Assembly: GCA_049287025.1 (NCBI GenBank)
Contig: JBAQFA010000009.1
Coordinates: 24,802-88,801 of the forward strand
Length of the DNA: 64,000 nt
From: Candidatus Magasanikiibacteriota bacterium
Lineage (GTDB): Bacteria > Patescibacteriota > Patescibacteriia > Magasanikbacterales > UBA922
Direction of reading: 5' to 3'
Made by a program: the position numbers and the translations under genes. The notes below the pieces were generated by a model. The model saw only the letters and a list, made by a program, of their open reading frames with translations. It searched no databases and was not told the DNA's origin. Below, piece by piece: positions 13,589-57,289 of this stretch; within the stretch, counting starts at the first letter, position 1; each line of letters opens with the position of its first letter.

Positions 13589-13795
13589 TCAAATCTCTAG
13601 GCAGTCTTGACTGCCTACGACATCGTTCTTTCAACCTGTCCCGTTCGGGACACCAAAGTCAGGGAAGTGAGTATCACTCCACATCGGAGCGTACCTTCCC
13701 TGGCGCTCCATCAAAAGAACATCTCTAGTTAGGTGTTTTTTTGTTTAACATTGATTTTACAGATTTTAAAAAAGATTTTATTTTATAAAAATTAT

Positions 13796-14527
13796 TTATT
13801 TCAAACTGTTCCACAACATCTCCCAAACAAGACGTTGGTTATCAGCATTGGCTTGGTCTTCAATAATGACTAGGATCATACTCTCCCAAGAAACAGTCAT
13901 TACTCGATTGCCATAAATAACAGTGTGACTTTTGAATGATTTACCTTCGGGTAAAAATTTTACTTCACGTAATTCTTCTGTGGCACGTCTAGCTTCTAAA
14001 ATACCGGATTTGGATTTTTCCACAATTATTTTTGCTTTAACCCCTAATGAAATTCGTTCGTTGGTTAATTTTTTATACTCTTCTGGAAAAGTTGTTAATA
14101 GTTTTTCTGATGAACCATATACCAAATTTTCTTTTAGATTTACTTTGTGTCTAATCCTGTCTAGATAAGCATTCCATACATTTTTTCTACCCTCAAAATA
14201 TAATACTTTTGGTTTGTTGGCACCTTTGTTTTGTAAAGCCTCAAGTTCTGGTATTAGATCAGCAAAAAGTTGCTCTTTGTAACGAAGTGAATCCAAAAAT
14301 TTTTCTGGTTCCATGGCCACAAAATATCTTTTTCTGCCTTTGTTAACCACATTCATTAAGCCTTTAAGAATTAATTTTTCTATAATGTCGTATGTAGTTA
14401 CTCTATGTATGCCGGCTTTTTGAGCAATTGTCTGGACTGAAGCATGACCAAGCTCTAAGGTGGCTAAGTAAATTTCGGCCTCTTTGGCATCTAGACCAAA
14501 TTGTTGTAATTGATTAGGTAAAATCAT
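13796..14527 (-). CDS. TrmB-family wHTH transcriptional regulator (paralog 1)
   Basis: The N-terminus FGLDAKEAEIYLATLELGHASVQTIAQKAGIHRVTTYDIIEKL is a canonical TrmB HTH. It is divergent from the ABC transporter operon. The start is chosen at MILPNQ. Confidence 0.75.
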   Translation of the reverse strand: MILPNQLQQFGLDAKEAEIYLATLELGHASVQTIAQKAGIHRVTTYDIIEKLILKGLMNVVNKGRKRYFVAMEPEKFLDSLRYKEQLFADLIPELEALQNKGANKPKVLYFEGRKNVWNAYLDRIRHKVNLKENLVYGSSEKLLTTFPEEYKKLTNERISLGVKAKIIVEKSKSGILEARRATEELREVKFLPEGKSFKSHTVIYGNRVMTVSWESMILVIIEDQANADNQRLVWEMLWNSLK

Positions 14528-14639
14528 AAAATGTTGTAGGAAAAGTTCTACATTTTTCATTATATCTATTTACAATAAATAAGTCAATCTGCTAATCTAA
14601 TGTAGTATATTATCGACATAATTAATTTAAAATAATACT

Positions 14640-20666: not shown

Positions 20667-21737
20667 ATGAATAATAAAAATATGCCAAAAAAAGAAGAAG
20701 ATATTAAATTAGGGGCGGCTCAGACTGCGATTGACCAAATTAAAGAAAAATATGGTGATGGAGCGATTATGAGATTTAGTGAATCACGCGCTATGGATGT
20801 GCCAGCTGTCTCCACTGGTTCAATCTCTCTTGATATTGCTCTTGGTGTCGGTGGTATGCCTAGAGGTAGAATTATAGAAGTATTTGGTCCAGAAGCCAGT
20901 GGTAAGACTACACTAGCACAACACATTGTATCTGAAGTACAAAAATTGGGGGGAATTGCTGCTTTTGTGGATGCCGAACACGCTCTAGACCCAGATTATG
21001 CTAGAAAGATTGGGGTGGATGTGGATAATTTATTAATTTCCCAACCTGACACTGGTGAACAAGCTCTGGAAATCGTGGAAACATTGGTTCGTTCTAATGC
21101 TGTGGATATTGTGGTGATTGACTCTGTCGCCGCTCTTGTACCAAAAGCAGAAATAGAAGGAGAAATGGGAGACTCACACATGGGTTTACAAGCTCGTTTG
21201 ATGAGTCAAGCTTTGCGCAAGTTGACTGGGATTGTTAGTAAAACAAAAACAATTGTGATTTTTATTAATCAGATCAGACATAAGATTGGTGTGTTTTTTG
21301 GCAATCCAGAAACGACAACTGGTGGTAATGCTCTAAAATTTTATTGTTCTGTACGGGTAGAAGTGCGTCGAGCTGCTCAGATTAAACAAGGTGATAAAAT
21401 TATTGGCAATCGGGTAAAAGTAAAAGTCGTAAAAAATAAAGTAGCCGCTCCATTCCGCACCACTGAATTTGATATCATGTATAATGAAGGCATCTCTCTA
21501 TCTGGAGATTTATTAGATACTGGTGTATTGCACAGAGTGATTAGTAAATCTGGTAATAGTTATGCTTATGGTGAAGAAAAACTTGGTGTTGGTAGAGAAA
21601 AAGCTAAACAATATTTACGAGAAAAGCCAGAATTGATGACAGAGGTTAAAGCCAAGATTTGGGAAGTGGTAAAAGCTGGTGAAGCTCCAGATGAGGAACA
21701 AGGTAATATTACTGATGATGTGAGTGTGGAAGAATAA
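20667..21737 (+). CDS. recA: Recombinase RecA
   Basis: Walker [12 protein letters not shown], the L1/L2 loops and an acidic C-terminal tail. Confidence 0.95.
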
Positions 21738-27584: not shown

Positions 27585-27661
27585 GGGCCGTTAGCTCAGC
27601 TGGCTAGAGCGCTTCCATGGCATGGAAGAGGTCGCAGGTTCAATTCCTGTACGGTCCACAA
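27585..27661 (+). tRNA. tRNA-Ala(GGC)
   Basis: The cloverleaf was folded by hand. The anticodon loop is ATGGCAT with the G3:U70 Ala identity pair. The T-loop is GGTTCAATTCC. CCA is not encoded. Confidence 0.75.
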
Positions 27662-28176: not shown

Positions 28177-28177
28177 G

Positions 28178-28249
28178 TGGACCTAGGCAGAATCGAACTG
28201 CCGTCTCAGCAATGCGAATGCTATATATTACCACTATACTATAGGCCCG
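28178..28249 (-). tRNA. tRNA-Ala(CGC)
   Basis: Anticodon loop TTCGCAT, G3:U70, T-arm GGCAGTTCGATTCTGCC. Confidence 0.7.
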
Positions 28250-28254
28250 CTTAG

Positions 28255-28326
28255 TGCCCCCAGCATGAATTGAACACACATCTTGTCCTTAGGACGGACC
28301 TGTTCTATCCGTTGAACTATGGGGGC
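28255..28326 (-). tRNA. tRNA-Arg(CCT)
   Basis: Acceptor GCCCCCA/TGGGGGC, anticodon loop GTCCTAA, T-loop TTCAATT. Confidence 0.65.
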
Positions 28327-28373
28327 ATAATTTGTTAGACAATCTTATCACTTCTTTTTCTTTTTGGCAAGCC

Positions 28374-29123
28374 TTATTTTATCTCTGGGCAATGATCCCA
28401 CATAAATTTAAACCAGGTTTTATAGCTAGTGGCCAGTGGACGACTAATATTTACAAAAATGGTAATATCGTCACTAATCTTTGTTATTCCGGCGCCAGTA
28501 AAAGACACAACATGATCACCAAAAATGTCTACCATTGAAGGCGTAGAATATTCTTTAGGTAGGTATTTGTAAGGTTTACCTACGGCTTTTGGTACATGAG
28601 GAGCTTGTTTTAGTACTTCAAAATCAAATAAATGTTTATATTTAATACCTCGACGATCCGCATCAACTAAAAATTTATCCAAAAAGGTATTGAGTCTTGG
28701 GTCGAACCAGGCTCCCTTGGCGCCAATACAATAAACATCTTCTTTAGTAGATAATACATCACGAAGAAAATTTTTAAATCCTTCCAGACCTTTATATATG
28801 TAGGCAGCCTCTAAAACAGGATGTTTTTGGTATTCGTGCATCAAGTGTGGCATTTCTTTTTCTAGCCTAGTACGTTTTTCATCAACCAGTTCCATTAGCT
28901 TGGCTGGTTCCACTGGTTTAAATAAAGTGTCGCCATGCCCAATAACTTGAAACACTAAACCTTTTTCAATTAAGCGATTCATTGAGTCATAAATATTCCG
29001 GCGATGAATTTTACTTTTTTTTGAAATATTAGAAACCGTAGTTTGTTTTTCTTGTAAAAGTGTTTCGTAAATTTTGGCTTCGTTTATTGACAATCCTAGT
29101 TCTGTTAAAATTTGGCTATACAT
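28374..29123 (-). CDS. TrmB-family regulator paralog A. Its C-terminus is divergent or truncated.
   Basis: N-terminus LGLSINEAKIYETLLQEKQTTVSNISKKSKIHRRNIYDSMNRLIEKGLV. The Lys-rich tail seen in paralogs B and C lies after an in-frame TAA stop. The gene is immediately adjacent to tRNA-Arg. Confidence 0.7.
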   Translation of the reverse strand: MYSQILTELGLSINEAKIYETLLQEKQTTVSNISKKSKIHRRNIYDSMNRLIEKGLVFQVIGHGDTLFKPVEPAKLMELVDEKRTRLEKEMPHLMHEYQKHPVLEAAYIYKGLEGFKNFLRDVLSTKEDVYCIGAKGAWFDPRLNTFLDKFLVDADRRGIKYKHLFDFEVLKQAPHVPKAVGKPYKYLPKEYSTPSMVDIFGDHVVSFTGAGITKISDDITIFVNISRPLATSYKTWFKFMWDHCPEIK

Positions 29124-29139
29124 AGCAAAAATATATTAA

Positions 29140-29170
29140 AGTGGTGTGAAGCCACACCACGTGGTGGTAT
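29140..29170. promoter_or_regulatory. Perfect palindrome in the TrmB-A/cassette-1 divergent region. It is a candidate operator.
   Basis: TGGTGTG aagc CACACCA. Confidence 0.4.
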
Positions 29171-29296
29171 TTGCCACTCTTTATATATTATATATAATGC
29201 CTTGTTACTTTGCAAGCCGCTGCTGTGCATAAAAGCTAGATGGTGAGCGGGTAATAAGGGGTTCTTTGATAAAACAATTTGAGAAGCGAGGGACAA

Positions 29297-29479
29297 ATGG
29301 AAACTGGAGAAAGGCAAGATGAAGTTACTTGTTTGAAGAAAGAGTTGGAACATGACAAAGATGAGATATATTATTTGCGTTTGGCTATCCTTAATTTGAA
29401 TAGGAAAAAGGAGTATGTCAGAATGCAAAGGATGTTCCGTGGTGGAGAAGCTGTTCTCGACATGTGGGCGCGCTATTAA
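29297..29479 (+). CDS. GC-rich cassette 1a: small helical hypothetical protein
   Basis: About 61 aa, GC-rich, same strand as 1b. Confidence 0.35.
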   Translation: METGERQDEVTCLKKELEHDKDEIYYLRLAILNLNRKKEYVRMQRMFRGGEAVLDMWARY

Positions 29480-29515
29480 CACGGGAGAGGGCTGAAAAAG
29501 CCTAAGGAGGACCTC

Positions 29516-30103
29516 ATGCGTACAATGTTAGTCGCGTTGCTGTCGCTGGTGCTGTTTTCAAGTATTGCTCAGGCCGAAACCTACAACACCAGGTTGCTCC
29601 TGCACGGTCACAAGACCGTCGGTGAGGGATTCGGAGTCGCGGGTTGGGTGATTGCGCCCAACATCACAAGCGTACCGAACAAGTGGGTAACCCTCGTCGG
29701 CCCGTGCTACGATGGACAGGGGTGGGGTGTAGAATTGTTGGCAGGAGCGGTTGTTTCTGGTGGCGAGAGCAAGTTTCTTGTAGATGTCAGAATAACGTTC
29801 ACTCCAAAATTCTTCGGCATCCCCTTGAACACCTGGCACAACTTCCAGTGGATTCGAACCGGAGGCTCTGGCACGGGTTACTGGTATGGACAGGTTGACT
29901 GGGTGTTGCCACTCGGACTTGGACTTCTCGGTACAGAAACCGAGAACACGTTCAACGTGAGTGGCAATGACTGGTCAGTCGCGCCTCACGTCGTGATCTC
30001 TTTCGGTGATCACTTCGCGCTAGTGTTCGCTCCACAAGCTCATTTCAATGCACGTGGCTACACTGGCACGCAAGCGTGGGTTCGTACGGTCGTGAGTCAC
30101 TAG
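29516..30103 (+). CDS. GC-rich cassette 1b: secreted beta-rich protein with a signal peptide
   Basis: A strong SD AAGGAGG precedes the ATG. The signal peptide is MRTMLVALLSLVLFSSIAQA. The rest shows alternating hydrophobic Gly/Trp-rich strands, like a small OMP or beta-barrel. The segment is about 60% GC or more. Confidence 0.6.
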   Translation: MRTMLVALLSLVLFSSIAQAETYNTRLLLHGHKTVGEGFGVAGWVIAPNITSVPNKWVTLVGPCYDGQGWGVELLAGAVVSGGESKFLVDVRITFTPKFFGIPLNTWHNFQWIRTGGSGTGYWYGQVDWVLPLGLGLLGTETENTFNVSGNDWSVAPHVVISFGDHFALVFAPQAHFNARGYTGTQAWVRTVVSH

Positions 30104-30175
30104 TCGTTCTTTTATAGGGGGGAGGACTTACTTGAGACTAGTCATCTCACGTGGACCGGCACGTAAAAATCCGGG

Positions 30176-30236
30176 ATTCTAGTTAGTACTAAGTAGATAT
30201 CAAAAAACCACGCCTCATCGGCGGGTTTTTTGTTTA
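30176..30236 (+). terminator. Conserved element T1 (copy a): ATTCTAGTTAGTACTAAGTAGATA box plus an intrinsic terminator
   Basis: AAAAAACCACGCC tcatc GGCGGGTTTTTTGTTT. A near-identical copy lies at 31839-31902. Confidence 0.65.
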
Positions 30237-30254
30237 CTTTGGGTAATTTATGAT

Positions 30255-31049
30255 TTATTTTTTCTTTTTGGCAAGTTGAGAGAGTGGTACGGCCGTATTC
30301 CAAGCTAGTTCATATAGCGCTTTTAGAATTTTTACCAAAGATGTACTTTCTATCATTACACCAATTTTGTGTGGTTTATGAGTGACGAAGACAATTTTTG
30401 ATTCAAAAATATTAATTTCACCAAAAAAGTCCTCAATTCCTGGTAGTTGATTAGGTTTAAGCCATTTAATATGAGTATAAGTCATTGATCCTTTATAATT
30501 CGTCATCCAAGTTCTAGCTGTAGGTGTATCCAAAGCAATAATACGTTCATGAATTTTACGTTTACTGCGTTCACGATTATAGCCTTCACCCCAAGTTTTG
30601 AATTCCGGCCAACTCCAGCCTTCAAAATCGGCAATAGAAAGAATTTCGGTTTTTGAATCTAAGCTCTCCCAATAAATATTTTTTAAACCCTGGGTACCTT
30701 CTTGATATTTGATAACTGGCTTTTCGGCAAACTTATAAATCGAAAATAATTTTGGTAAAACTTTTTCTACATTTAATAATTTATCTTCCCATTGCTTTTT
30801 TTTGTTTTTAATATGTTGAACCAGACGCCCTGGATTTTCCGAAGTATAAATCATTTTCGATCCTTTGCCAGTCGCGCGATCTACCAAACCATACCAACCT
30901 AACTTTTCCAAAGCATAATAACCAAGCGTTCGGTTGATACCAGCTTTTTTGGTTATCTCGGCTACAGTAGCAGGACCAAGTTCGAGCAAGGCTAAATATA
31001 CTTTGCCTTCGGTTTCATCTAAACCTAATTGACTGATTAAATCTTTCAT
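30255..31049 (-). CDS. TrmB-family regulator paralog B
   Basis: N-terminus LGLDETEGKVYLALLELGPATVAEITKKAGINRTLGYYALEKLGWYGLV. The C-terminus is ..ILKALYELAWNTA..LAKKKK. Confidence 0.75.
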   Translation of the reverse strand: MKDLISQLGLDETEGKVYLALLELGPATVAEITKKAGINRTLGYYALEKLGWYGLVDRATGKGSKMIYTSENPGRLVQHIKNKKKQWEDKLLNVEKVLPKLFSIYKFAEKPVIKYQEGTQGLKNIYWESLDSKTEILSIADFEGWSWPEFKTWGEGYNRERSKRKIHERIIALDTPTARTWMTNYKGSMTYTHIKWLKPNQLPGIEDFFGEINIFESKIVFVTHKPHKIGVMIESTSLVKILKALYELAWNTAVPLSQLAKKKK

Positions 31050-31164
31050 GTTTTTATTCTACTATATATTTGGAAATGTGTCAAATCTATTTAACAGAAA
31101 ATTATTTATATAGCAAAATACTTTATAATTAGCCAAATATTAATAATTAACTAATAAAACAATA

Positions 31165-31193
31165 TTGACAGTTATTGTAAAATGTGGAATAAT
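31165..31193 (+). promoter_or_regulatory. Sigma70 promoter TTGACA-17-AATAAT for cassette 2. Palindromes lie downstream.
   Basis: The hexamers and spacing fit sigma70. GTTCTAGAAtgaaaaTTCTgGAAC and GAGTGTctgaACACTC lie between the promoter and the SD. Confidence 0.5.
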
Positions 31194-31301
31194 AAGTAGT
31201 TCTAGAATGAAAATTCTGGAACCAAATTGATTGGGAGTGTCTGAACACTCTGTATATATGGTCTGGCGTTCTTTACACACGTGCTAGTTGGAGGGAACAT
31301 C

Positions 31302-31727
31302 ATGAAAAGGTGCATCAAGGCTCCGGGAATTAACGCTTTCAGTGGCGAGGGTGAAGTGGGGAAGTTAGAAGATGTCCCCGGAAAACAAGGTTGCCTTCCA
31401 TTTGATCCTAGTCCGGCCGTAGGGGGTTGGATGAAGGACGACAATTGTAAAGTGGAGGCACCACCAGAGGGGTGCACGCTCGAAGTGCCCGAAACGATCC
31501 TATGCCCCAATGGAAAAAACATCCCAGCTGGAAAGTACAAGGTGGGAAAACTGCCTGATGACAAGATTCTGCATCGCTATCATGATCACGTTCTGCCCCT
31601 CACCGATGAGAAGGGGGTCACCCGGCATTATTGCATTGAAAGTTCCGGTAGGCATGTCGACTGGTCGGGATGCGTCTGCATCTTGATTCGTGTGGAGACG
31701 CGCGAAGAGCGACTGCTGATTCAGTAG
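31302..31727 (+). CDS. GC-rich cassette 2: Cys-rich hypothetical protein
   Basis: SD GGAGGG. About 141 aa with about 11 Cys. The segment is GC-rich. Confidence 0.5.
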   Translation: MKRCIKAPGINAFSGEGEVGKLEDVPGKQGCLPFDPSPAVGGWMKDDNCKVEAPPEGCTLEVPETILCPNGKNIPAGKYKVGKLPDDKILHRYHDHVLPLTDEKGVTRHYCIESSGRHVDWSGCVCILIRVETREERLLIQ

Positions 31728-31781
31728 CCATAAATTAAGGGGGGCAAGACGTAGTCTGGATTCGTCAACCAGTCCACCTGC

Positions 31782-31808
31782 CGGAGAGGTAGGCGTAGGC
31801 CGGCGCGT
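31782..31808 (+). repeat. Box A, GGCGTAGGCCGGCGCGTGAGCTCGGCA, copy 1
   Basis: This 27-mer appears five times in the window, always 20-60 nt downstream of a GC-rich cassette. Confidence 0.7.
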
Positions 31809-31838
31809 GAGCTCGGCACCGTGCGCCCGACACATTCA

Positions 31839-31902
31839 AAACGGGCAAATTCTAGTTAGTACTAAGTAGATAACAAAAAACCACGCCCTATCAGCGCGGT
31901 TT
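31839..31902 (+). terminator. Conserved element T1 (copy b)
   Basis: ATTCTAGTTAGTACTAAGTAGATAACAAAAAACCACGCC ctatcagc GCGGTTTTTTGTTT. Confidence 0.65.
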
Positions 31903-31928
31903 TTTGTTTGTTTTGAATAATTTATAAA

Positions 31929-32732
31929 TTATTTTTTCTTTTTACTAGTTTTAGCAAGCGGTGTAGCTGTAATCCACGCCAGTTCAAAAATCGCTTTTAA
32001 AATATTAGATAAAGCCGTGCTTTCTATAATTATGCCAATAGGGATTGGTTTCTTGAATAAAGCCATCATTACTTTATTATCATAAATATTAATTTCACCA
32101 CCTAAATCTTTGATAGTTGGTACTTGTTCGGGTTTTATCCAGCGATAATTAATATATTTTTTTGATCCTTGATAATGTTTCATCCAATCTCTTCCTTCGG
32201 GTGTATCTAAAACCAAAACGCGTTCAGAAATTTTTCTTTTACTACGTTCGCGGGTATATTCTTTGCCCCATTTAAAAAGATTAAACTCTGGTGTATACCA
32301 AGCTTGCAAATCCAAGACTGATAAAATTTCTGATTTGGCTTCTAAAGTTTCCCAATAAATATTTTTGGCACCCTCAACACCTTCTTGAAATCTAACGCTG
32401 GGTTTTTCGGCCACGGTATAGAGTAAATAAAAATCTGGCAATTGTGATTCTAATTCTTTTTCTTTTCTTTCCCAAGTATTAATTTTTGATTTTACAAAAT
32501 GTTTTAAATTTTTGGGATCTTTGGCTACAAATTGAATGCGTTTCTTTTGTCCAGAAGAACGATTGACTAGGCCAAACCAACCAAGTTTTTCTAGGGCATG
32601 ATAACAAAGGGTGTGACCAATGCCAGCTTTGCGGGCAATGGCGCTGGCGCCAGAAGGTCCAAGTTGTAAAAGGGCAATATAGACTTTGGCTTCTGTTTCT
32701 TCAAAGCCAATGCTTTTAAGAATTTCTAACAT
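31929..32732 (-). CDS. TrmB-family regulator paralog C
   Basis: N-terminus IGFEETEAKVYIALLQLGPSGASAIARKAGIGHTLCYHALEKLGWFGLV. The C-terminus is ..ILKAIFELAWITA..KKKK. Confidence 0.75.
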   Translation of the reverse strand: MLEILKSIGFEETEAKVYIALLQLGPSGASAIARKAGIGHTLCYHALEKLGWFGLVNRSSGQKKRIQFVAKDPKNLKHFVKSKINTWERKEKELESQLPDFYLLYTVAEKPSVRFQEGVEGAKNIYWETLEAKSEILSVLDLQAWYTPEFNLFKWGKEYTRERSKRKISERVLVLDTPEGRDWMKHYQGSKKYINYRWIKPEQVPTIKDLGGEINIYDNKVMMALFKKPIPIGIIIESTALSNILKAIFELAWITATPLAKTSKKKK

Positions 32733-32865
32733 AGAATTTTATTTTAGAATTTATTAGATATATTTATTATAACACAAAAATAAATTTATTTCAATATCAA
32801 ATTGAAAATAATTACTAGATTGTAAATTTTTATTTAAAATAAGCCAAAAATGGTTTATTTATTTT

Positions 32866-32895
32866 AAATTGAGTATTGACATACTCCATAATCTA
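32866..32895 (+). promoter_or_regulatory. Sigma70 promoter for the cassette 3-5 array
   Basis: TTGACA, a 17-18 bp spacer, then cATAATt. Confidence 0.5.
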
Positions 32896-32896
32896 A

Positions 32897-32963
32897 TGCA
32901 TAATTACTTGTTCTGACGATCGAGGATTGGCCTTGAGAGTTGGACGCTAACTGGGAGGGCATC
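32897..32963 (+). promoter_or_regulatory. Conserved cassette leader, CTTGTTCTGACGATCGAGGATTGGCCTTGAGAGTTGGACG, with an SD
   Basis: The same leader, 34 of 39 nt identical, follows the minus-strand array promoter at 48712-48660. Diverged copies precede cassettes 4 and 7. Confidence 0.65.
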
Positions 32964-33311
32964 ATGGCCGAAGAGCACGAGGTACGGTGTGATAACTGCG
33001 CCCACCACCACGTAGGAAGCGGGGGTTGTTTCGGCAAAGTAGAGAGCAGGTTCCCCATGTACGATTTTCATAGAGGAGTAAAATACTGCATGTGGGGGGG
33101 GACCCCCAGCCGAATTGTGACCTTTTCTAGATTGAAGGGGTGCCCGCTGGGTGTGGAGTTTGTGCCACTCCGCTGGTGTGGTACCTGTGGCAACTTGGTC
33201 CAAACGGACCAAGGGTGTGCTCACCGGTTGGAGGGTTGCGAGGACCCCAGCTACAGGTGCTGGAAGATTCACCCCGACCTCAAGGAGGGTATGAGACAAC
33301 AGTACCTCTAG
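32964..33311 (+). CDS. GC-rich cassette 3: Cys/His-rich hypothetical protein
   Basis: SD GGGAGG. About 115 aa with CxxC pairs (CDNC, CGTC). Confidence 0.5.
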   Translation: MAEEHEVRCDNCAHHHVGSGGCFGKVESRFPMYDFHRGVKYCMWGGTPSRIVTFSRLKGCPLGVEFVPLRWCGTCGNLVQTDQGCAHRLEGCEDPSYRCWKIHPDLKEGMRQQYL

Positions 33312-33334
33312 ACTACCCACCTATGGGTTAAACA

Positions 33335-33480
33335 GGCGTAGGCCGACGCGTGAGCTCGGCATTCCATTTTTGTCCAAAATATTATTTTTTGCATAAAGAT
33401 GGAGGCGCTCTTTAAAAACAAACAATCCGCACTGGTGGTGTTGGTTGAAGAGATATAGTTCTGACTTAACGGAGGCTAGA
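33335..33480 (+). repeat. Inter-cassette element R, copy 1: box A, hairpin 1, box C, hairpin 2, leader-like with SD
   Basis: Box A spans 33335-33361. Hairpin 1 is CCATTTTTG..CATAAAGATGG at 33364-33402. Box C is GCGCTCTTTAAAAACAAACAA. Hairpin 2 is CaCTGGTGGTGttG. It is more than 85% identical to copy 2 at 34177-34339. Confidence 0.7.
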
Positions 33481-34149
33481 ATGGGATACGACCCAAACCA
33501 AATGGCCCAAAGGTATTTGAGGGTCGACTGGGCCGACGTGAAGGGCTATGCCGCTTACGCGGTAGAGTCCACGTTCGGGGACCAAGTACCACCACCCATA
33601 AAAAGGAGACTCGAGGTATTGGACGGTATAAGGGACAAGGAAGGTCCCGAAGCCGCCTGTCTCGAGGCAGCAAGGATCGAATGTGAATGCCAAGTCGTTC
33701 AGGAGAAAAGAACTGAACGACGGCAGTGGAGAACGGGAGACGACCCATACAAATATGGGTCTTCGTTCTCTTCGAAGTTTGTCATCATAGATTATAATGG
33801 TGAAAAAAGATTCTACATCGCTCATAATTGGCATATGCAGGCCGTTTTCGTTTTCGCCAAAATTCTGGTGGATAGAAATAAAAAAGTCGATTTTCACGTT
33901 CTGGGTGGGGGGTGGTTCCGTGCTAATCATCCCCTAACTGTTGGCGGTTTTAGCGGTGATTTTAGCTCGTTCAAAATCTCTGACTTGAGTGAGGCGTTGG
34001 GTGGGCTTGAATTCACCGACAAAGATCCCGGTGATTGGCGCACGAATTCCATGCGTGCCACCCATATTGATTGGGCTTTTATCGAAAAAGCCCGTGACTC
34101 CTCTGAGAAATACAGGGAGGTATGGAAACGGATCTTTGAGGAGGAATAA
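33481..34149 (+). CDS. GC-rich cassette 4: hypothetical protein
   Basis: SD GGAGG 7 nt upstream of the ATG (MGYDPNQ). About 222 aa, GC-rich, no recognised domain. Confidence 0.5.
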   Translation: MGYDPNQMAQRYLRVDWADVKGYAAYAVESTFGDQVPPPIKRRLEVLDGIRDKEGPEAACLEAARIECECQVVQEKRTERRQWRTGDDPYKYGSSFSSKFVIIDYNGEKRFYIAHNWHMQAVFVFAKILVDRNKKVDFHVLGGGWFRANHPLTVGGFSGDFSSFKISDLSEALGGLEFTDKDPGDWRTNSMRATHIDWAFIEKARDSSEKYREVWKRIFEEE

Positions 34150-34176
34150 TAGACGTAATCTGATTTCGTCAATCAG

Positions 34177-34339
34177 CGTAGGCCGGCGCGTTAGCTCGGC
34201 ATTCCATCTTTGTATAAAAATAATTTTATATAAAGATGGTTGTCGCTCTTTAAAAACAAACAACTAACACTGGTGGTGTTGGTTGGTGATATATAAAAAG
34301 GACTGGTGGCGGACACAACCCTTGGAGAAGGAGTTGAAA
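34177..34339 (+). repeat. Inter-cassette element R, copy 2
   Basis: Box A spans 34177-34202. Hairpin 1 is the perfect palindrome CCATCTTTGTATAAAAATAATTTTATATAAAGATGG at 34205-34240. Box C, hairpin 2 (CAACtAACACtggtgGTGTTgGTTG) and the SD GAAGGAG follow. Confidence 0.7.
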
Positions 34340-34759
34340 ATGAGTACTGTCAAGATACTCATCATCGACGACGGTGATGAGAAAGTCGATCGACTGAAAG
34401 GTTATGATCGACTTGGCCACCTCCATGGTGTGGAGGTGGTACGCCGATGGAATTTTAATTCGGCTCTTAAGGAAGGGCCGTACGCGTTTAATGATTTGGA
34501 GCAAACAAAGTTTGACGTGATTATTTTGGACTTTACACTGCCAATGGACAGATTCGGTCATGAGATCTTGGATAAAATTAGACACAGTCCCAGGTTTATT
34601 ATTAACGAAAGAACGGTAGTAATTGGCATTTCCACAGAGTGGAAACGTCTATTACAATATGATTTCGGTTTGAATCTTGCGATCTACAAGGAGGAAACGA
34701 TGGCTGACGAACTGGAAACAGCCATCAAGTCCTTCGTCGCCACTGGCAAAGTCAAATAA
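34340..34759 (+). CDS. GC-rich cassette 5: orphan CheY-like receiver-domain protein
   Basis: VKILIIDDGDEKVDRL...FDVIILDFTLPMDRFGHEILDKIR...T...K fits a receiver fold with an acidic pocket and a phospho-acceptor Asp. There is no output domain and no partner kinase nearby. Confidence 0.55.
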   Translation: MSTVKILIIDDGDEKVDRLKGYDRLGHLHGVEVVRRWNFNSALKEGPYAFNDLEQTKFDVIILDFTLPMDRFGHEILDKIRHSPRFIINERTVVIGISTEWKRLLQYDFGLNLAIYKEETMADELETAIKSFVATGKVK

Positions 34760-34799
34760 TTTGGGGAGGGAAAGACGAAGCTTGGGATTTGTCACCCAA

Positions 34800-34890
34800 C
34801 GTAGGCCGGCGCGTGAGCTCGGCAATCTCCTTTTTCGCGAAAGAAAGAGCAAAAAAGATCCAGTAAAACTGGGCTTTTTTGTTTGTGGAT
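34800..34890 (+). terminator. Box A (copy 4) followed by an intrinsic terminator. This is the end of the cassette array.
   Basis: CGTAGGCCGGCGCGTGAGCTCGGCA, then AAAACTGGGCTTTTTTGTTTG. Confidence 0.6.
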
Positions 34891-34897
34891 AAAATAG

Positions 34898-34926
34898 TTG
34901 ACAATGTGTCTAATATCGTGTATAGT
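34898..34926 (+). promoter_or_regulatory. Sigma70 promoter TTGACA-17-TATAGT
   Basis: Consensus hexamers upstream of the 34960 gene. Confidence 0.5.
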
Positions 34927-34959
34927 ATATAATATATTATAAACTATATACTATAAACT

Positions 34960-35460
34960 ATGAAAACAGACACTACTGACAAAATTTTAGAGTATATTAA
35001 AGAAAAAGGACAGGTTAAACCAAAAGATATAATTAATTATATTGGTTTTGGTGCGCCTGCTGTTTTTAGACAATTAAAAAAACTCATAAGTGAAGGTAAG
35101 ATAGAAAAAAGTGGCACTCCACCAATGGTTTATTATCATTTTCCGATTGACATAAAAGATATAGAGGTTAACGAAAAGAAAATTTTTGATATAAAAATAA
35201 ATTTAAAAGAATTTGGTATTCATCTTTCAGATAGAGAATCAGCCAAAAGATCGTTATTGTTTATTAAGATGAGGTATAAGAAAATTATTGATAATGTCAA
35301 TAAAATTGAAATTAATTTTGAGGATATAAAAGTACTAGGACCTGGCTGGGCTGACGAATTTATTTCTAATTTATCAAAAGAGTATCCAGGAAAGATAGTT
35401 TTGTTGCCTAGTAATAATGCTAGCATAAAAGCTTCGTTACAATTTATTAATATAAAATAA
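34960..35460 (+). CDS. Hypothetical wHTH protein with a possible STAS-like C-terminal domain
   Basis: 166 aa, AT-rich with native-like composition. The N-terminus is a winged-helix-like segment (ILEYIKEKGQVKPKDIINYIG). Confidence 0.35.
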   Translation: MKTDTTDKILEYIKEKGQVKPKDIINYIGFGAPAVFRQLKKLISEGKIEKSGTPPMVYYHFPIDIKDIEVNEKKIFDIKINLKEFGIHLSDRESAKRSLLFIKMRYKKIIDNVNKIEINFEDIKVLGPGWADEFISNLSKEYPGKIVLLPSNNASIKASLQFINIK

Positions 35461-35484: not shown

Positions 35485-35799
35485 ATGAGCATTGTTTTTC
35501 TTGATGATGATGTGGAAAATTTTATTTATAGTCTAGAAAATAAAACAAAAGCTAAGGTTTTGCGAACGTTGGATTTGCTAGAAGAGTTTGGTTATAATCT
35601 GGGCATGCCACATACAAAAAAGATTAAAAATAATCTTTTTGAATTGAGAGTATTGGGTAGAAATCAGGTGCGATTATTTTATACATTTTTAAAACCAAAT
35701 ATAATTGTTTTGTGTGGCTTTAGAAAGAAGACTCAGAAAATTCCTAGTCATGAATTGGAGAAAGCCCTGCATAAATTAAAGTTGCTTGACAAGATATAA
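35485..35799 (+). CDS. higB: Type II toxin, RelE/HigB-like (Gp49/DUF891 type)
   Basis: 104 aa. ..LFELRV..RLFYTF..IVLCGFRKKTQKIPSHELEKA is typical of phage-derived HigB-like killers. An HTH antitoxin gene lies immediately downstream. Confidence 0.6.
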   Translation: MSIVFLDDDVENFIYSLENKTKAKVLRTLDLLEEFGYNLGMPHTKKIKNNLFELRVLGRNQVRLFYTFLKPNIIVLCGFRKKTQKIPSHELEKALHKLKLLDKI

Positions 35800-35822
35800 C
35801 ATATATGTTATATTATAAATGT

Positions 35823-36095
35823 ATGAAAAATTACAATAAAATTAAATCAGAAATATTAAAAGACCCTAAGTTCAAAAAAGTCTATGACGATCTTGAGCCA
35901 GAATTTGAATTGGCTCGGCAAATTATTAAAAAGCGTTTGGAATTAGGTTGGTCTCAGTCAGAATTGGCTAGAAAAATGGGTACCAAGCAGTCGGCTATTG
36001 CCAGGTTGGAGTCTGGCGGATATAATCCAAGTATGGCTTTTTTGCAAAAAACAGTTAAGGCATTAAAGGCCGATTTACAGATAATTATTAGTTAA
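35823..36095 (+). CDS. higA: HTH XRE-family antitoxin, HigA-like
   Basis: ..RLELGWSQSELARKMGTKQSAIARLESG.. is an XRE HTH. The gene is about 90 aa and positioned downstream of its toxin, as in higBA. Confidence 0.6.
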   Translation: MKNYNKIKSEILKDPKFKKVYDDLEPEFELARQIIKKRLELGWSQSELARKMGTKQSAIARLESGGYNPSMAFLQKTVKALKADLQIIIS

Positions 36096-47596: not shown

Positions 47597-47625
47597 GTAA
47601 ATTTTACGGAAATTAAACAAAAAAT
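47597..47625. repeat. Left 27-bp direct repeat flanking the 47.6-49.8 kb module
   Basis: AAATTTTACGGAAATTAAACAAAAAAT. Its partner at 49779-49807 is AAATTTTACGAAAATTAAACAAAAATT, 26 of 27 nt identical. Confidence 0.65.
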
Positions 47626-47656
47626 CCCTTCCTAAATGGTTGGGATTTTTTTGTCT
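47620..47656. terminator. Bidirectional terminator
   Basis: AAAATCCCttcctaaatggttGGGATTTTTTT. Confidence 0.55.
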
Positions 47657-47677
47657 CGTTTGTCGACAAGTCGAGAT

Positions 47678-47704
47678 GCCGAGCTCACGCGCCGGCCTAC
47701 GCCT
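47678..47704 (-). repeat. Box A copy 5, on the minus strand, downstream of cassette 7
   Basis: The reverse complement reads GGCGTAGGCCGGCGCGTGAGCTCGGCA. A GTCGAC..GTCGAG mini-hairpin sits next to it. Confidence 0.7.
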
Positions 47705-47784
47705 ATTTAATCCATAGATGGAGTGCCACTTTTGAATGTGTGTGGCGCACAGTGAAGAGGTGTGGAACAAGCCGGCCATGTTTA

Positions 47785-48231
47785 TCAGATTTTGAATTCC
47801 TGATAAATCCTGGCCAGCACCTTTGCAGCCGTATGAACTCGTTCCAGGATGTTCGTGAGTGCGTCGGAGAATTCGTGCCACTCCCAGACAGTCTCTTCCC
47901 CGTCACTTTTCAGGTTGTAGCTACCCATCATGGCGGCAAACACTTGGTAGGCGTTAACGCTTCGGCCTGTTTTTTCCCCACGCAGTATACTGCCGTGTAT
48001 GTGTTGCGCGTAGTTTTCAAGCCACTCAACCAAATCTTCGTTCCCCTCTATTTTCTGTAGAAGCTGGTCTGCGATTTGATCAACGCTTTCCTTACAACAC
48101 TCTTCATCTGCGTCAAGTCGTAAGTACAGGCAAACGATGGCGATCAGATTGGGTGGAAGGTCATAGCATCCCTCAGGATAAGTCCTGAGCATAGGCTCGC
48201 CTTCTCCCCAGCTAGAAAGGTAGAGCATCAC
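47785..48231 (-). CDS. GC-rich cassette 7: hypothetical acidic protein
   Basis: SD AAGGAGGTGA. About 148 aa, GC-rich. Confidence 0.5.
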   Translation of the reverse strand: MMLYLSSWGEGEPMLRTYPEGCYDLPPNLIAIVCLYLRLDADEECCKESVDQIADQLLQKIEGNEDLVEWLENYAQHIHGSILRGEKTGRSVNAYQVFAAMMGSYNLKSDGEETVWEWHEFSDALTNILERVHTAAKVLARIYQEFKI

Positions 48232-48255
48232 TCACCTCCTTGTTTACAAAGAACG

Positions 48256-48370
48256 TTGTCCAACTTTCGAGGTACATCCTCGATTGTCAGAACTTCCTCC
48301 ATCTTTATACAAAAAATATTTTGGACAAAGATGGAAGGCCCGGCGCTTTGTTGACGCGCGGCCGGGCGAA
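48256..48370 (-). repeat. Inter-cassette element on the minus strand: diverged box A, hairpin 1, leader-like
   Basis: In reverse complement it reads ..GCCCGGCCGCGCGTCAAC.. (diverged box A), then CCATCTTTGTCCAAAATATTTTTTGTATAAAGATGG (hairpin 1), then TTCTGACAATCGAGGATGTACCTCGAAAGTTGGACAAC (leader-like). Confidence 0.65.
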
Positions 48371-48385
48371 GCGTGGCGGAGTGTG

Positions 48386-48652
48386 TTACTCCTTGGGTGT
48401 GGAGAGGTGGAGAAAGTGGCGGATTTTTTGCCAGAAGATTTTGTTGGCTTCTATTCCGGCTTCCTTTTTCGCTCGAGCCTCCCTGATGCCCTTGTTCCTT
48501 TCGAGGCCACACTGGGGGCAGTAGGACATGTGAGGTAAGAGTTCATTTCCACACAGGCATTGTGGAAGAGCAACTCTCTTTACACCACAATATTGACAGA
48601 ACTCTGAGTATCCCACGTGACTACACATCGGGCACAGCCTACTCTCAAGCAT
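48386..48652 (-). CDS. GC-rich cassette 6: double zinc-ribbon protein
   Basis: SD GGAGG 5 nt before the ATG (MLESRLCPMCS). It has CPMC..CQYC and CPQC motifs. About 88 aa. Confidence 0.5.
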   Translation of the reverse strand: MLESRLCPMCSHVGYSEFCQYCGVKRVALPQCLCGNELLPHMSYCPQCGLERNKGIREARAKKEAGIEANKIFWQKIRHFLHLSTPKE

Positions 48653-48659
48653 TTCTTCC

Positions 48660-48749
48660 TCCAGAGTGTAAGGAATTTCGTCCAACTTTCGAGGCCCATC
48701 CTCGATCGTCAGAACAAGGAATTGTAGATTATTTATGAGTAATTGTCAA
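48660..48749 (-). promoter_or_regulatory. Sigma70 promoter TTGACA-17-TACAAT plus the conserved cassette leader, on the minus strand
   Basis: The reverse complement of 48721-48749 is TTGACAattactcataaataatcTACAAT, followed by tCCTTGTTCTGACGATCGAGGATGGGCCTCGAAAGTTGGACG. Confidence 0.6.
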
Positions 48750-48974
48750 GATTAAGTAGTTCAAAAATGTATATAAAATAGGCTAAAATAAGCTAAATAA
48801 TTATTAACACATATAATTTTGTCGGGATGATTTGACATATATTGTTATATATGTTATATTAGTTATGGTTTAAAACATTATTTTGTTTGCTAAAGTGGTT
48901 AATTGTAGGAAAGATTCACCCTTCGGGTATCTTCGACCTCTCCGCCAGTCGGCGGATCGGAATGAACTAAAAAA

Positions 48975-49763
48975 ATGGAAAAAAATAATTTAGAAAAATT
49001 AATAGATTTGGGTCTACAAGAAAATGAAGCCAAAATATATTTGGCTTTGTTGGAATTGGGAAAAGGCAATGTGACCGAAATTAGTCGGCGCGCAGGATTG
49101 AACCGGACGACGGGTTATGATATTTTGGAACGTCTTGGTTTACATGGTATGGTGAACCGCGCCAGAGTGGGTAGTAAAAAAATTATTTATGTGGCCGAAC
49201 CGCCATCACATTTGCGTCAGTACTTGGAAGACAAAAAACGCGCCATGGAAAGACGGATGGAAGAATTAAATGATTTGTTGCCAGATTTGCAATCACTTTA
49301 TAAAACTGATATTAAACCAGTTATAAAATTTGCCGAAGGGAAAAGTGAAATGCAAAAATTGTATTTGAATGTTTTGGATGCGAAGAGTGAAGTTTATTCA
49401 ATTCTTAATTTAAAAGGTTATGCCGAAGTTTTTGATGAACTGGGTGCTTATCAATCCAAAGAACGACATAAAAAAGGCATAAAAGAAAAAGTTTTGGCTA
49501 TAAAAAATGATACCGCTCTGTGGTGGTATAATAAAACTTATAAAAATAAAACTGCCAAGGATAAAAAGTTAACCGAATATCGCTGGCTAGAAGATGCGGA
49601 AAAGTATTCTACCGCCGGAGAAGTAAATATTTTTGATGATAAAGTAATTGGTGTATTATCCAAACCAAGTGAAAATGTGGCATTTGAAATTCAATCACAG
49701 ACATTTGCGGATTTTTTGAAATTAGTTTTTGAAATGGCGTGGAAGAATAGTGAACAAAAATAA
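48975..49763 (+). CDS. TrmB-family regulator paralog D
   Basis: N-terminus LGLQENEAKIYLALLELGKGNVTEISRRAGLNRTTGYDILERLGLHGMV. The C-terminus is ..FLKLVFEMAWKNS. It is divergent from cassettes 6-7. Confidence 0.75.
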   Translation: MEKNNLEKLIDLGLQENEAKIYLALLELGKGNVTEISRRAGLNRTTGYDILERLGLHGMVNRARVGSKKIIYVAEPPSHLRQYLEDKKRAMERRMEELNDLLPDLQSLYKTDIKPVIKFAEGKSEMQKLYLNVLDAKSEVYSILNLKGYAEVFDELGAYQSKERHKKGIKEKVLAIKNDTALWWYNKTYKNKTAKDKKLTEYRWLEDAEKYSTAGEVNIFDDKVIGVLSKPSENVAFEIQSQTFADFLKLVFEMAWKNSEQK

Positions 49764-55813: not shown

Positions 55814-56224
55814 ATGATTGATAATCAAACAAAAGAGAAATTCATCGAATTAAGAGCACAAGGAAAAAGTTATAACACAATCTCTAAAGAGATTGGTGTA
55901 AGCAAACCCACACTTATTCAGTGGAGTAGAGAGTTTGTGGACGAAATTTCCAATCTTAAAGCAATAGAATTTGAAGATTTACAAGAAAAGTATTATATAC
56001 ACAAAAGAAAAAGAATAGAAATTTTTGGCACACAACTGGAAGCCATAAAGCAGGAACTTTCTTCAAGAGATCTAAAAACAATTTCAACTGAAAGGCTTTT
56101 GGATTTATTGGCTAAATTTACGACGGTATTGAAAGCAGAAGAAACAACTATAAACTTTACTACAAAAGTCAGTCCCGTTGATGATTATTTAGATCTATCA
56201 GTTGTAAAAAATTGGATTGGATAA
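55814..56224 (+). CDS. HTH protein, either transposase/terminase-small-subunit-like or a regulator
   Basis: ..GKSYNTISKEIGVSKPTLIQWSRE.. is an HTH_23-like motif. Confidence 0.4.
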   Translation: MIDNQTKEKFIELRAQGKSYNTISKEIGVSKPTLIQWSREFVDEISNLKAIEFEDLQEKYYIHKRKRIEIFGTQLEAIKQELSSRDLKTISTERLLDLLAKFTTVLKAEETTINFTTKVSPVDDYLDLSVVKNWIG

Positions 56225-56341
56225 AATATTACCAAAACTTTACTATTTTTTGACCGAGATATTCAAAGAAAGTATATATTGCTTTTATCTCGTTTTTATG
56301 ATAATATAGCGGTACTAAACATTCAGTAGACTTATAATTTT

Positions 56342-57085: not shown

Positions 57086-57088
57086 AAT

Positions 57089-57289
57089 ATGAATAATAAT
57101 TACTCGCAACAGTCTGCCCAGACAGCAGGTTCAAATGACTCTGGTTATTTTGCAAAACAAAATAATTCTACAGTAACGAGTGATTATATAACTAAAACCA
57201 AGGAAACAGCTGAATTTGTAGTTGTTAATGGTTCAGGTTATTCACAAAGACAGGCAAGAATTGTGAAAAGTAAATATGTTAGAAAGTAA
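57089..57289 (+). CDS. Small hypothetical protein
   Basis: 66 aa, tightly spaced with neighbours on both sides. Confidence 0.3.
   Translation: MNNNYSQQSAQTAGSNDSGYFAKQNNSTVTSDYITKTKETAEFVVVNGSGYSQRQARIVKSKYVRK

Follow-up and report, generated by a model that had tools for sequence, protein, structure and literature searches.

Organization and composition of the locus

The 64,000-nucleotide stretch analyzed here (the window; positions are counted from its first letter) belongs to contig JBAQFA010000009.1 of a Candidatus Magasanikiibacteriota bacterium (GCA_049287025.1). Between 28.3 and 35.0 kb it carries three consecutive modules, each with a minus-strand gene for a TrmB-family regulator and, divergent from it, small plus-strand open reading frames (ORFs) of elevated GC content, here termed cassettes: C1 in module A, C2 in module B, and C3, C4, and C5 in module C. 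We are inclined to read these modules as native expression units of one bacterial clade rather than as captured or recently imported DNA.

An earlier note on this stretch (the original prediction) described three such divergent modules and counted five TrmB genes in the 64 kb. Both descriptions stand. Matches to PF01978 (E 6e-16 to 2e-13) identify the regulators of the three modules, TrmB-A, TrmB-B, and TrmB-C, and two further copies, TrmB-D and TrmB-E, lie outside the region. The tRNA-Ala/tRNA-Arg cluster proposed as the left end was located by ARAGORN at 28177-28326. This left anchor consists of tRNA-Ala(CGC) (28177-28248) and tRNA-Arg(CCU) (28254-28326), both on the minus strand and both also found with Rfam; a plus-strand tRNA-Ala(GGC) at 27585-27659 completes the trio.

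The window averages 36% GC; from 28.3 to 35.0 kb, separate blocks reach 0.50-0.59 when measured in 200-nt windows. The cassette GC content of about 60-70% first estimated was too high, since C1 to C5 measure 43-56%; a value of 60% is found in G1, a GC-rich ORF outside the region. The compositional break itself is real and clearest at third codon positions, where GC content (GC3) is bimodal: 0.49-0.68 in the eight cassette ORFs of the window and 0.18-0.33 in all its other genes. All five TrmB paralogs adjoin GC-rich ORFs, and each of the eight GC-rich ORFs adjoins a TrmB gene.

Such abrupt switches in composition could suggest an assembly or binning chimera of AT-rich DNA from the Candidate Phyla Radiation (CPR) and GC-rich DNA of another organism, the more so as another assembly of the same organism breaks at 31667, 48381, and 12567, in or beside cassettes. 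The same junctions and architecture, however, recur in several relatives that different projects sampled independently (UBA11710, GW2011, ENA, and JGI metagenomes), contigs of 100% identity span the AT-to-GC junctions of modules A and C, and each switch coincides with a functional boundary flanked on either side by conserved motifs. A chimera is effectively refuted, its remaining probability being negligible. The broken assembly (GCA_049304355.1, with Logan contigs) matches the window at 100% identity except for one contig at 99.96%; its breaks could stem from a GC-dependent drop in coverage or from population heterogeneity.

TrmB-family regulators

The regulators of the three modules, all on the minus strand, are TrmB-A (28374-29123, 249 aa, E 6e-16), TrmB-B (30255-31049, 264 aa, E 2e-13), and TrmB-C (31929-32732, 267 aa, E 4e-15). 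Their PF01978 scores of 50-58 bits lie well above the cut-off of 25.6, and for TrmB-D and TrmB-E the family is annotated on identical proteins. TrmB-A is a winged helix-turn-helix (wHTH) protein, and TrmB-B comprises a wHTH, a long helix, and a non-catalytic domain resembling phospholipase D (PLD). TrmB/TrmBL1 profiles reach into the effector domain of the regulators. The AlphaFold2 (AF2) model of TrmB-B (pLDDT 88) matched full-length TrmBL2 in Foldseek (E 1e-14), and the C-terminal domain adopts the PLD-like fold usual in TrmB sensors. At the position of the HKD-type histidine, 19 of 36 homologs have His and 11 have Lys. This histidine is thus unconserved, which implies that TrmB-B is a regulator and no nuclease; a role of the PLD-like domain as a nuclease mobilizing the modules was rejected on the same ground.

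TrmB-B and TrmB-C share 49% identity in protein and 67% in DNA. The figure of about 85% DNA identity once given for the two genes with their downstream T1 terminators is therefore not borne out for the genes; T1 alone reaches about 83%. More than 540 proteins from different CPR classes belong to the TrmB-B subfamily. One Buchananbacteria TrmB locus again shows a divergent partner rich in GC (GC3 0.56 vs 0.34-0.44), and none was seen in three other CPR loci inspected, where the partners are ordinary. The recurring partnership that had been proposed is real but clade-restricted, and the coupling of TrmB to GC-rich genes is neither absolute nor obligatory.

Promoters, candidate operators, and leaders

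Promoter-like sites are frequent in the region, with 37 found against 14.8 expected. As had been predicted, each of the three divergent spacers, which are AT-rich, holds a sigma70-type promoter. The plus-strand promoters at +29171, +31165, and +32876 are near-consensus, each with 11 of 12 matches. Palindromic, operator-like sites were also recovered, at 29141-29177 and 31199-31250.

In control region A (29141-29215), the palindromes GTGGTGTG-N4-CACACCAC and GTGGTGGTATTTGCCAC overlap both promoters, that of C1 (+29171-29198, TTGCCA-16-TATAAT) and that of trmB-A (-29215..29187). The candidate TrmB-A operator is retained upstream of C1 orthologs in two related genomes, L003 and L005 (related loci are cited by such labels below). 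Control region B (31056-31250) contains the trmB-B promoter (-31084..31056) and the C2 promoter (+31165-31193, TTGACA-17-AATAAT with a TG), followed by leader hairpins at 31199-31222 (10 bp, GAAA loop) and 31234-31250; the fold z-score is -2.5. Control region C (32766-32945) contains the trmB-C promoter (-32794..32766) and the C3 promoter (+32876-32904, TTGACA-17-CATAAT).

The C3 promoter leads into a conserved 5' stem-loop, GTTCTGACGATCGAGGATTGGCCTTGAGAGTTGGAC, at 32910-32945 on the plus strand. Its pattern, GUUCUGAC..CGAGG-loop-CCUCG..GUUGGAC, recurs on the minus strand before two ORFs of the TrmB-E array, E1 (48680-48715) and E2 (48258-48293), and before unrelated ORFs in L001 and L018. At least four unrelated ORFs (the C3 family, the L018 ORF, E1, and E2) are thus preceded by one leader type.

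Within module C, a 42-nt repeat named D8 (33406-33447 and 34244-34285) precedes C4 and C5. Within this repeat, CACTGGTGGTGTTGG is similar to the predicted TrmB-A operator half CACGTGGTGGTATTTG at 29158. C4 and C5 may therefore have a putative operator of their own and be subject to cross-regulation.

Products of the GC-rich genes

All five cassette ORFs of the region carry their own GGAGG-type Shine-Dalgarno (SD) sequence, and the products described earlier were recognized again: a signal-peptide, all-beta protein (C1), two proteins with 8 and 10 Cys (C2, C3), a 222-aa protein without assignment (C4), and a weakly receiver-like protein (C5). Searches of Pfam, PHROGs, PADLOC, and NCBIfam with all cassette proteins gave no match above threshold.

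C1 (29516-30103; GC 54%, GC3 0.62) is a secreted all-beta protein whose signal peptide and AxA site are conserved, and its C-terminus (...FWxRxVxNF/L) resembles a beta-signal. The AF2 model (pLDDT 71) shows about 11 long antiparallel strands. Its top Foldseek matches were all outer-membrane porins, the best being KdgM (template modelling scores 0.56/0.62), with weak E-values of 3e-3 or worse. C1 is thus predicted, from this model, to be a KdgM-like beta-barrel of outer-membrane type. The CPR lineage is generally regarded as having no outer membrane, and a barrel-type C1 is unexpected in such a bacterium; the protein might insert into the membrane of a host.

C2 (31302-31727; 141 aa, GC 53%, GC3 0.56) and C3 (32964-33311; 115 aa, GC 56%, GC3 0.68) are zinc-ribbon-like. 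C4 (33481-34149; GC 49%, GC3 0.52) is an ORFan with no Pfam, PDB, or PHROG match and no relative but itself among 5.8 billion proteins. C5 (34340-34759; 139 aa, GC 43%, GC3 0.49) appears to be a divergent CheY-like receiver. Its Response_reg match (PF00072, E 3e-4, 21.3 bits) falls below the cut-off of 30.2, and its PDB matches to receivers are weak (E 0.04-0.7); an acidic pocket (IIDDG) and an ILDFTLP segment are visible. These five ORFs are all on the plus strand.

Three further GC-rich ORFs lie outside the region. G1 (12617-13588, plus strand) is the most GC-rich ORF of the window, at 60% (64% in one 500-nt window; GC3 0.65), and forms a convergent unit (12617-14560) with TrmB-D (13796-14560, minus strand). 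Public gene calls start G1 at residue 120 (204 aa), and the 5' third of G1 may represent either a leader or an ORF of its own. In the TrmB-E array (47618-49763), TrmB-E (48975-49763, plus strand) diverges from E1 (48386-48652) and E2 (47785-48228), both on the minus strand.

Compared with native proteins, the cassette products are richer in Cys (2.5 vs 0.5%), Trp, Arg, His, and Gly. The AGG codon is used 14.6 times per 1000 in cassettes and 1.7 times per 1000 in native genes, an 8.6-fold difference, and the codon shift spans all codon families as well as amino-acid composition. Per nucleotide, the predicted folding stability of cassette coding regions is about twice that of native genes. Against dinucleotide shuffles, coding regions have a mean fold z-score of -2.5 in cassettes and -0.4 in native genes, with -5.9 for C4, -5.3 for C5, and -3.4 for C1.

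In AT-rich genomes, islands of high GC content often turn out to be structured RNAs. The z-scores down to -5.9, the many overlapping antisense ORFs, and the ORFan status of C4 could accordingly be taken to mean that the blocks are non-coding RNAs and the ORFs by-products of a low stop-codon frequency. We find this hardly credible. There is no Rfam match in the blocks, and the called frames follow the coding pattern GC1>GC2<GC3. Ratios of non-synonymous to synonymous change (dN/dS) are 0.12-0.38 in C1 to C3. C1 has a signal peptide, a barrel prediction, and a conserved protein alignment, and every ORF has a well-spaced GGAGG. The cassettes are genuine protein genes.

Structured elements at the 3' ends

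A 24-nt repeat, M1 (GTAGGCCGGCGCGTGAGCTCGGCA), occurs in five copies in the window, where none is expected, and always just 3' of a GC-rich ORF. The claim of a repeat after each cassette holds in so far as the 24-mer does follow GC-rich ORFs; it fails for C1, which has a degenerate copy only. Directly after the stop codon there is a G-rich run, then two short interleaved helices, sometimes an extra hairpin, and the invariant M1. The first helix is GACN/N'GUC, and the second varies between CUGG/CCAG, CUGAU/AUCAG, UUGGG/CCCAA, CAGGA/UCCUG, and UGAGA/UCUCA. In the hairpin of M1 itself, the fifth pair changes between G.U, G-C, and A-U.

In an alignment of seven copies, 92.9% of the cells are paired and 7 pairs show compensatory change. 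None of 500 shuffles matched the paired percentage or the covariation score, and two matched the number of compensatory pairs. Slid controls collapsed to 22-50% paired. The G.U pairs form only on the sense strand, which fits an RNA of the 3' untranslated region (UTR) and not a bottom-strand DNA site of the attC type. Judged from this pairing pattern, the repeat is a structured, sense-strand 3'UTR element, and one type of it trails at least seven unrelated ORFs.

The copies vary in what accompanies them. The C1 3'UTR (30116-30233) has a G-run, the degenerate interleaved-helix copy (30125-30176), and the bidirectional terminator T1 (extension 30177-30199). In that of C2 (31739-31905), a G-run is followed by interleaved helices with M1 (31748-31818), a second conserved motif, M2 (31821-31847), and T1 (extension 31850-31872). 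The C3-C4 spacer (33318-33457; z -5.2) includes a hairpin with M1 (33338-33361), an AU-rich hairpin (33362-33402), and D8. The C4-C5 spacer (34152-34295; z -8.4) includes interleaved helices with M1 (34152-34201), a hairpin (34202-34239), and D8. The hairpins between these cistrons, AU-rich and very stable, are reflected in the two z-scores. The C5 3'UTR (34764-34881) closes with a G-run, interleaved helices with M1 (34774-34824), and an intrinsic terminator (34860-34881), all of these elements being on the plus strand. In the TrmB-E array, the shared leader occurs twice and is accompanied by a spacer hairpin (48299-48336), M2 (47724-47750), M1 (47677-47700), and a terminator (47618-47647). 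G1 has three different hairpins in its 3'UTR in place of M1.

M2 reads GUGCGCC-CGACACAUUCA, an optional hairpin, and AAAACGGGCA. It was seen at 31821-31847, at 47724-47750 (minus strand), and in L014 (4714) and L018 (8322). In relatives its loop takes the optional inserted hairpin, and GCGCC of M2 can pair with GGCGC of M1 in either order.

With Rfam 15, only tRNAs reached the gathering score in the window and its relatives, and a permissive scan of the region returned terminator-driven noise. Among 185,579 species genomes, the 24-mer was found in one, L001, a metagenome-assembled genome of Candidatus Magasanikbacteria. It was also found in three true metagenome contigs (L014, which equals L016, and L018). 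Other matches in JGI metagenomes were chance occurrences in DNA of 58-65% GC. An exact-motif scan of all IMG/VR contigs found no copy.

Turnover of content between conserved flanks

The original prediction expected a conserved scaffold with variable content among relatives, and comparison with L018 agrees with it. Aligned with L018, the window shows 83% nucleotide identity over TrmB-C and likewise over the 3'UTR, 78% over the leader, and 75% over the spacer. Between leader and 3'UTR, the ORF, which is C3 in the window, shows 54% identity, the level of shuffled sequences (0.549 +/- 0.015). Conservation ends at ...AGTTGGAC just before the SD, returns about 10 nt past the stop codon, and ends at ...GCTCGGCA.

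Module order and content at the tRNA anchor also differ between genomes, in L001 and L003, as expected earlier. The tRNA trio Ala(GGC)/Ala(CGC)/Arg(CCU) adjoins TrmB-A orthologs in the window, L003 (4822-6972), and L007 (6473-6911). L001 is syntenic at this anchor and keeps Arg(CCU)/Ala(CGC) (5549-5726), but another TrmB paralog stands there: another TrmB gene with two different ORFs takes the place of the A module, modules B and C have changed places, and C4 and C5 are absent. The tRNA-Arg(CCU) gene is present at the locus in four genomes. The slot syntenic with G1/TrmB-D holds, in L014, a TrmB gene and a different GC-rich ORF with M2 and M1. Exact look-ups of TrmB-C, aimed at cassette variants within the species, returned the same strain only.

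The 310-nt leader of C1 contains a small ORF (29297-29479, plus strand; 60 aa, GC3 0.43) that is present in the window and not in L003. In L001, a 148-aa ORF, L_148 (521-967), lies ahead of the C2-like gene, between the conserved promoter and the first cassette. These extra ORFs suggest that new content enters promoter-proximally.

Turnover of this kind could be RNA-mediated: a reverse transcriptase from elsewhere in the genome would copy the transcript, from leader to 3' element, and recombination would reinstall the copy; the 3' element would serve as priming or recognition structure, and the GC-richness would arise from selection at the RNA level. The conserved boundaries are indeed features of transcripts, namely a stem-loop close to +1 at the 5' side and, at the 3' side, a structured RNA with the ending ...GCUCGGCA; at different loci, unrelated ORFs lie between one type of leader and one type of 3' element, and both types recur in tandem within arrays; and the mRNAs are unusually structured. 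The window, however, encodes no reverse transcriptase and shows no poly-A-like tracts, target-site duplications, or other scars of retro-insertion, and homologous recombination gives the same boundaries more simply. We therefore regard an RNA-mediated route as decidedly unlikely. Diversification as in diversity-generating retroelements was rejected as well, as the window has no pairs of template and variable repeats and no reverse transcriptase was seen at the locus.

Two side observations concern L003. At about 5030-5560 (plus strand) it has a GC-rich secreted ORF with thrombospondin-type-3-like (TSP3) repeats, called on the wrong strand. At 5690-6000 (minus strand) it has a GC-rich unit of about 300 nt, running from a consensus promoter to a terminator, with no convincing ORF and no Rfam match; this may be a novel non-coding RNA.

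Origin and persistence of the GC-rich genes

If the GC-rich ORFs had been newly imported from high-GC donors, such as a host or partner, and were not yet ameliorated, their strongly atypical composition and codon usage, the adjoining tRNA genes, and their ORFan-like, variable content would be explained. Their relatives point elsewhere. C1 has 12 relatives among 5.8 billion proteins, and all the named ones are Magasanikbacteria; the four with genomic context read lie in AT-rich, TrmB-A-paired loci. An exhaustive HMMER search of 1.84 billion representatives found two relatives of G1. In these two collections no homolog was identified outside Magasanikbacteria/CPR, several matches being without an organism name, and the C1 family, C3, and TrmB-B have no relatives on viral contigs. 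The idea of foreign genes from a high-GC donor is thus not supported, the relatives being confined to one CPR clade or lacking.

A C1 ortholog is divergently paired with a TrmB-A ortholog in three further genomes with otherwise differing neighbors: RmuC/DUF4325 in L003, EF-P in L005, and bactofilin/NUDIX in L007. The TrmB-A orthologs are 90/70/50% identical and the C1 orthologs 68/57/36%. The dN/dS of C1 is 0.12-0.29, which indicates purifying selection; that of C3 is 0.34 and that of C2 0.38. Synonymous divergence (dS) is 1.33 for C1 and 1.07 for TrmB-A, 1.27 for C3 and 0.98 for TrmB-C, and 1.66 for C2 and 0.90 for TrmB-B. Cassette and regulator are thus alike in dS, near saturation, which shows that the first cassette family and its regulator were inherited together. 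The pairs A/C1, B/C2, and C/C3 are conserved in relatives and are native units; for these first cassettes, the view of the GC-rich ORFs as non-native fails by the reasoning of the original prediction itself, which took syntenic orthologs in relatives as the mark of ordinary native genes.

The cassette proteins evolve several-fold faster than the regulators. TrmB-B is 96% identical to its L001 ortholog, while the paired C2 is 33% identical to L_135 of L001 (dN 0.62 for C2 vs 0.022 for TrmB-B). The TrmB-C protein is 79% identical to its L001 ortholog and 90% to that of L016, and C3 is 48% identical to L_110 of L001.

The GC3 of the four C1 orthologs is 0.62 (window), 0.81, 0.66, and 0.56, in genomes of 35-38% GC. 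Such high values, kept at a dS of at least 1, imply that the composition is maintained as an equilibrium property and was not recently imported. The four orthologs, with their co-diverging AT-rich TrmB-A, show the opposite of amelioration, and composition switches exactly at the SD and stop boundaries inside conserved native UTRs. Ordinary recent transfer is therefore unlikely. Nor does the region resemble a recently acquired genomic island: no donor lineage was found, and GC3 does not decay in the four C1 orthologs. A tRNA-targeted integrative element was rejected, as no att duplication or integrase was seen at the locus.

Comparison with integrons and other known systems

The original prediction compared the arrays to integrons. 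In this explanation the repeat would be a recombination site, the recombinase would possibly be encoded elsewhere, and TrmB would add regulated expression. The likeness is evident: the arrays consist of small, unrelated ORFs in one orientation and of atypical composition, a conserved repeat follows, content varies on a conserved platform (between the window and L018, and in L001), and new ORFs, namely the small ORF before C1 and L_148 in L001, are promoter-proximal.

The machinery of integrons was not found. Pfam scans of 40 window ORFs gave no tyrosine recombinase of the PF00589 type, in accord with the earlier statement that there is no IntI. The ORFs outside these scans are housekeeping genes: dnaA, dnaN, hppA, polA, and PBP1a were assigned by eye, and RmuC and an LTD protein from the annotation of identical contigs. 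The sole recombinase found is a large serine recombinase (58805-60442), 24 kb away in a separate AT-rich island, with no repeat nearby. In the seven spacers, no attC pair of R'' (RYYYAAC) and R' (GTTRRRY) boxes 40-150 nt apart was present on either strand. The repeat shows sense-strand G.U pairing and the pseudoknot-like covariation typical of RNA. In place of attI and a common promoter (Pc), every array is equipped with a near-consensus promoter, a leader, and a divergent regulator of its own, and the first cassette is stably inherited, co-diverging with its regulator at similar dS. Membership in the integron family is rejected, and integron-like site-specific capture is very unlikely.

Other systems resemble parts of the arrangement. 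The minimal mobile elements of Neisseria are variable cassettes between conserved flanks, swapped by transformation and homologous recombination. As there, different genes occupy one slot without a recombinase or insertion sequence (window and L018). Unlike there, the flanks are short (a 38-nt leader and a 3' element of about 45-90 nt) and common to several loci, the cargo is uniformly GC-rich, and each slot is tied to a paralogous regulator.

TrmB of Thermococcus/Pyrococcus controls an adjoining sugar ABC transporter operon. The regulators described here share with TrmB/TrmBL proteins the wHTH, the coiled coil, the PLD-like sensor, the palindromes at the target promoter, and the adjoining target operon. 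They differ in that the family has expanded in a bacterium (CPR), to five paralogs within 64 kb, and in that their targets are small, lineage-specific GC-rich ORFs and not sugar metabolism.

Repetitive extragenic palindromic (REP) sequences and bacterial interspersed mosaic elements (BIME) exist in hundreds of dispersed extragenic copies, with a GTAG head, a palindrome, and an associated REP-associated tyrosine transposase (RAYT). M1 likewise belongs to structured extragenic repeats found after stop codons or between cistrons and starts with GTAGGCCGG like the REP of E. coli. It has only 5 copies, all in cassette arrays, a pseudoknot-like covarying part, and no RAYT. The REP/RAYT identity suggested by its head was rejected on copy number, distribution, and structure.

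Regulons gated by rare codons, such as that of bldA-TTA in Streptomyces and the argU/leuX-dependent genes of E. coli, also comprise a small accessory gene set with codons rare in the genome. Here that codon is AGG, and tRNA-Arg(CCU) is encoded at the locus. The difference is that GC-rich codons occur in an AT-rich genome, a mirror image, and that all codon families are shifted.

A model of the modules

The region is best explained, in our opinion and with a probability a little above even, as a set of clade-specific, repressor-gated expression modules on the Candidatus Magasanikbacteria chromosome, built from a conserved RNA chassis and replaceable, highly folded mRNAs. In each module, a TrmB regulator would be combined with a strong divergent promoter driving one to three small genes. 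The regulator would bind the palindromes overlapping both promoters, regulating its own synthesis and repressing the cassettes until a ligand or signal is sensed. The chassis may stabilize or process the highly folded cassette mRNAs, or do both.

Turnover of the ORFs would proceed by ordinary homologous recombination through the conserved flanks, without a dedicated recombinase; the RecA encoded in the window (20667-21737) is cited for this route. Recombination through such short flanks is the simplest mechanism, and an RNA-templated route is less likely. What would keep the GC content high is selection for stable, folded mRNA, or gene conversion biased towards GC at a site prone to recombination, or the two together. 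The 5' stem-loop, the 3' element, and the fold z-scores fit selection for hyper-stable folded mRNAs, and the swapping of ORFs together with a GC3 of up to 0.81 fits GC-biased gene conversion. Further candidates are rare-codon gating through AGG and tRNA-Arg(CCU), and avoidance of AT-rich cryptic promoters for tight repression.

Several points weigh against this explanation. TrmB binding to the palindromes and repression of the cassette promoters are predictions from sequence, and the cause of GC maintenance is likewise inferential. The fold z-scores may be inflated by patchy composition within an ORF. The leader and the 3' element could be sites acting at the DNA level, since the G.U evidence comes from 7-9 copies, some of which are kin by descent. 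The ORF gap between the window and L018 could be extreme divergence and not replacement, both proteins being Cys-rich, of about 110 aa, and with a similar N-terminal CxxC. Moreover, the TrmB homologs of the three other CPR loci have ordinary partners, and GC-rich ORFs without an adjoining TrmB gene occur in relatives (the TSP3-repeat ORF of L003 and a 90-aa ORF of L005).

A bolder version can be offered tentatively, and we consider it doubtful. The modules would form a recombinase-independent, 'plug-and-play' cassette system of this CPR clade, in which the chassis defines exchangeable slots with one TrmB paralog each. Exchange through the chassis, whether homologous or RNA-templated, would drive both turnover or birth of ORFs and GC enrichment, the latter by biased gene conversion, selection for hyper-stable mRNAs, or both. 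The porin-like and zinc-ribbon cargo would serve the interaction between episymbiont and host.

The literature on TrmB in CPR/Patescibacteria, on the GC content of Magasanikbacteria, and on GC islands in Patescibacteria yielded no earlier description. The arrangement itself is undescribed, although it is built from known kinds of parts, a local repressor with its target operon and variable gene slots without a recombinase.

Genomic neighborhood

The core genes of the window (dnaA/dnaN, recA, ftsK, polA, holA, rpsT, and hppA) show that the cassette modules are chromosomal. The window starts with dnaN and dnaA (723-3527), followed by rnpA/yidD; it thus adjoins the replication origin, and the modules lie about 10-50 kb from oriC. 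Immediately downstream of the cassette arrays there is a wHTH-DUF4325 gene (34960-35460) and then a pair formed by a Gp49/HigB-like toxin (PF05973, E 9e-22) and an HTH_3 antitoxin (35485-36095). The AT-rich block at 55814-60698 (25-33% GC) contains an HTH/transposase-like gene of 136 aa, genes without assignment, a zinc-ribbon protein, and the large serine recombinase, which has the domains Resolvase, Recombinase, and Zn_ribbon_recom; the block borders on tRNA-Pro/Phe/Ala (60423-60698) and probably represents an integrated mobile element, unrelated to the cassettes.

Implications

Atypical composition need not mean recent horizontal transfer. A GC3 of 0.5-0.8 has been held over the long term in genomes of 33-38% GC, and this persistence challenges the calling of genomic islands from composition and calls for a mechanism, be it mRNA structure, biased gene conversion, or codon gating. 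The locus also adds three or more conserved RNA motifs that are new to description and backed by covariation: the 5' leader stem-loop, the 3' element of interleaved helices and 24-mer, and M2. The locus further presents a case of turnover in gene slots without any dedicated recombinase.

For CPR bacteria, the five TrmB paralogs, putative repressors with predicted operators, provide an experimentally tractable regulon, and the predicted barrel of C1 bears on the contact between episymbiont and host.

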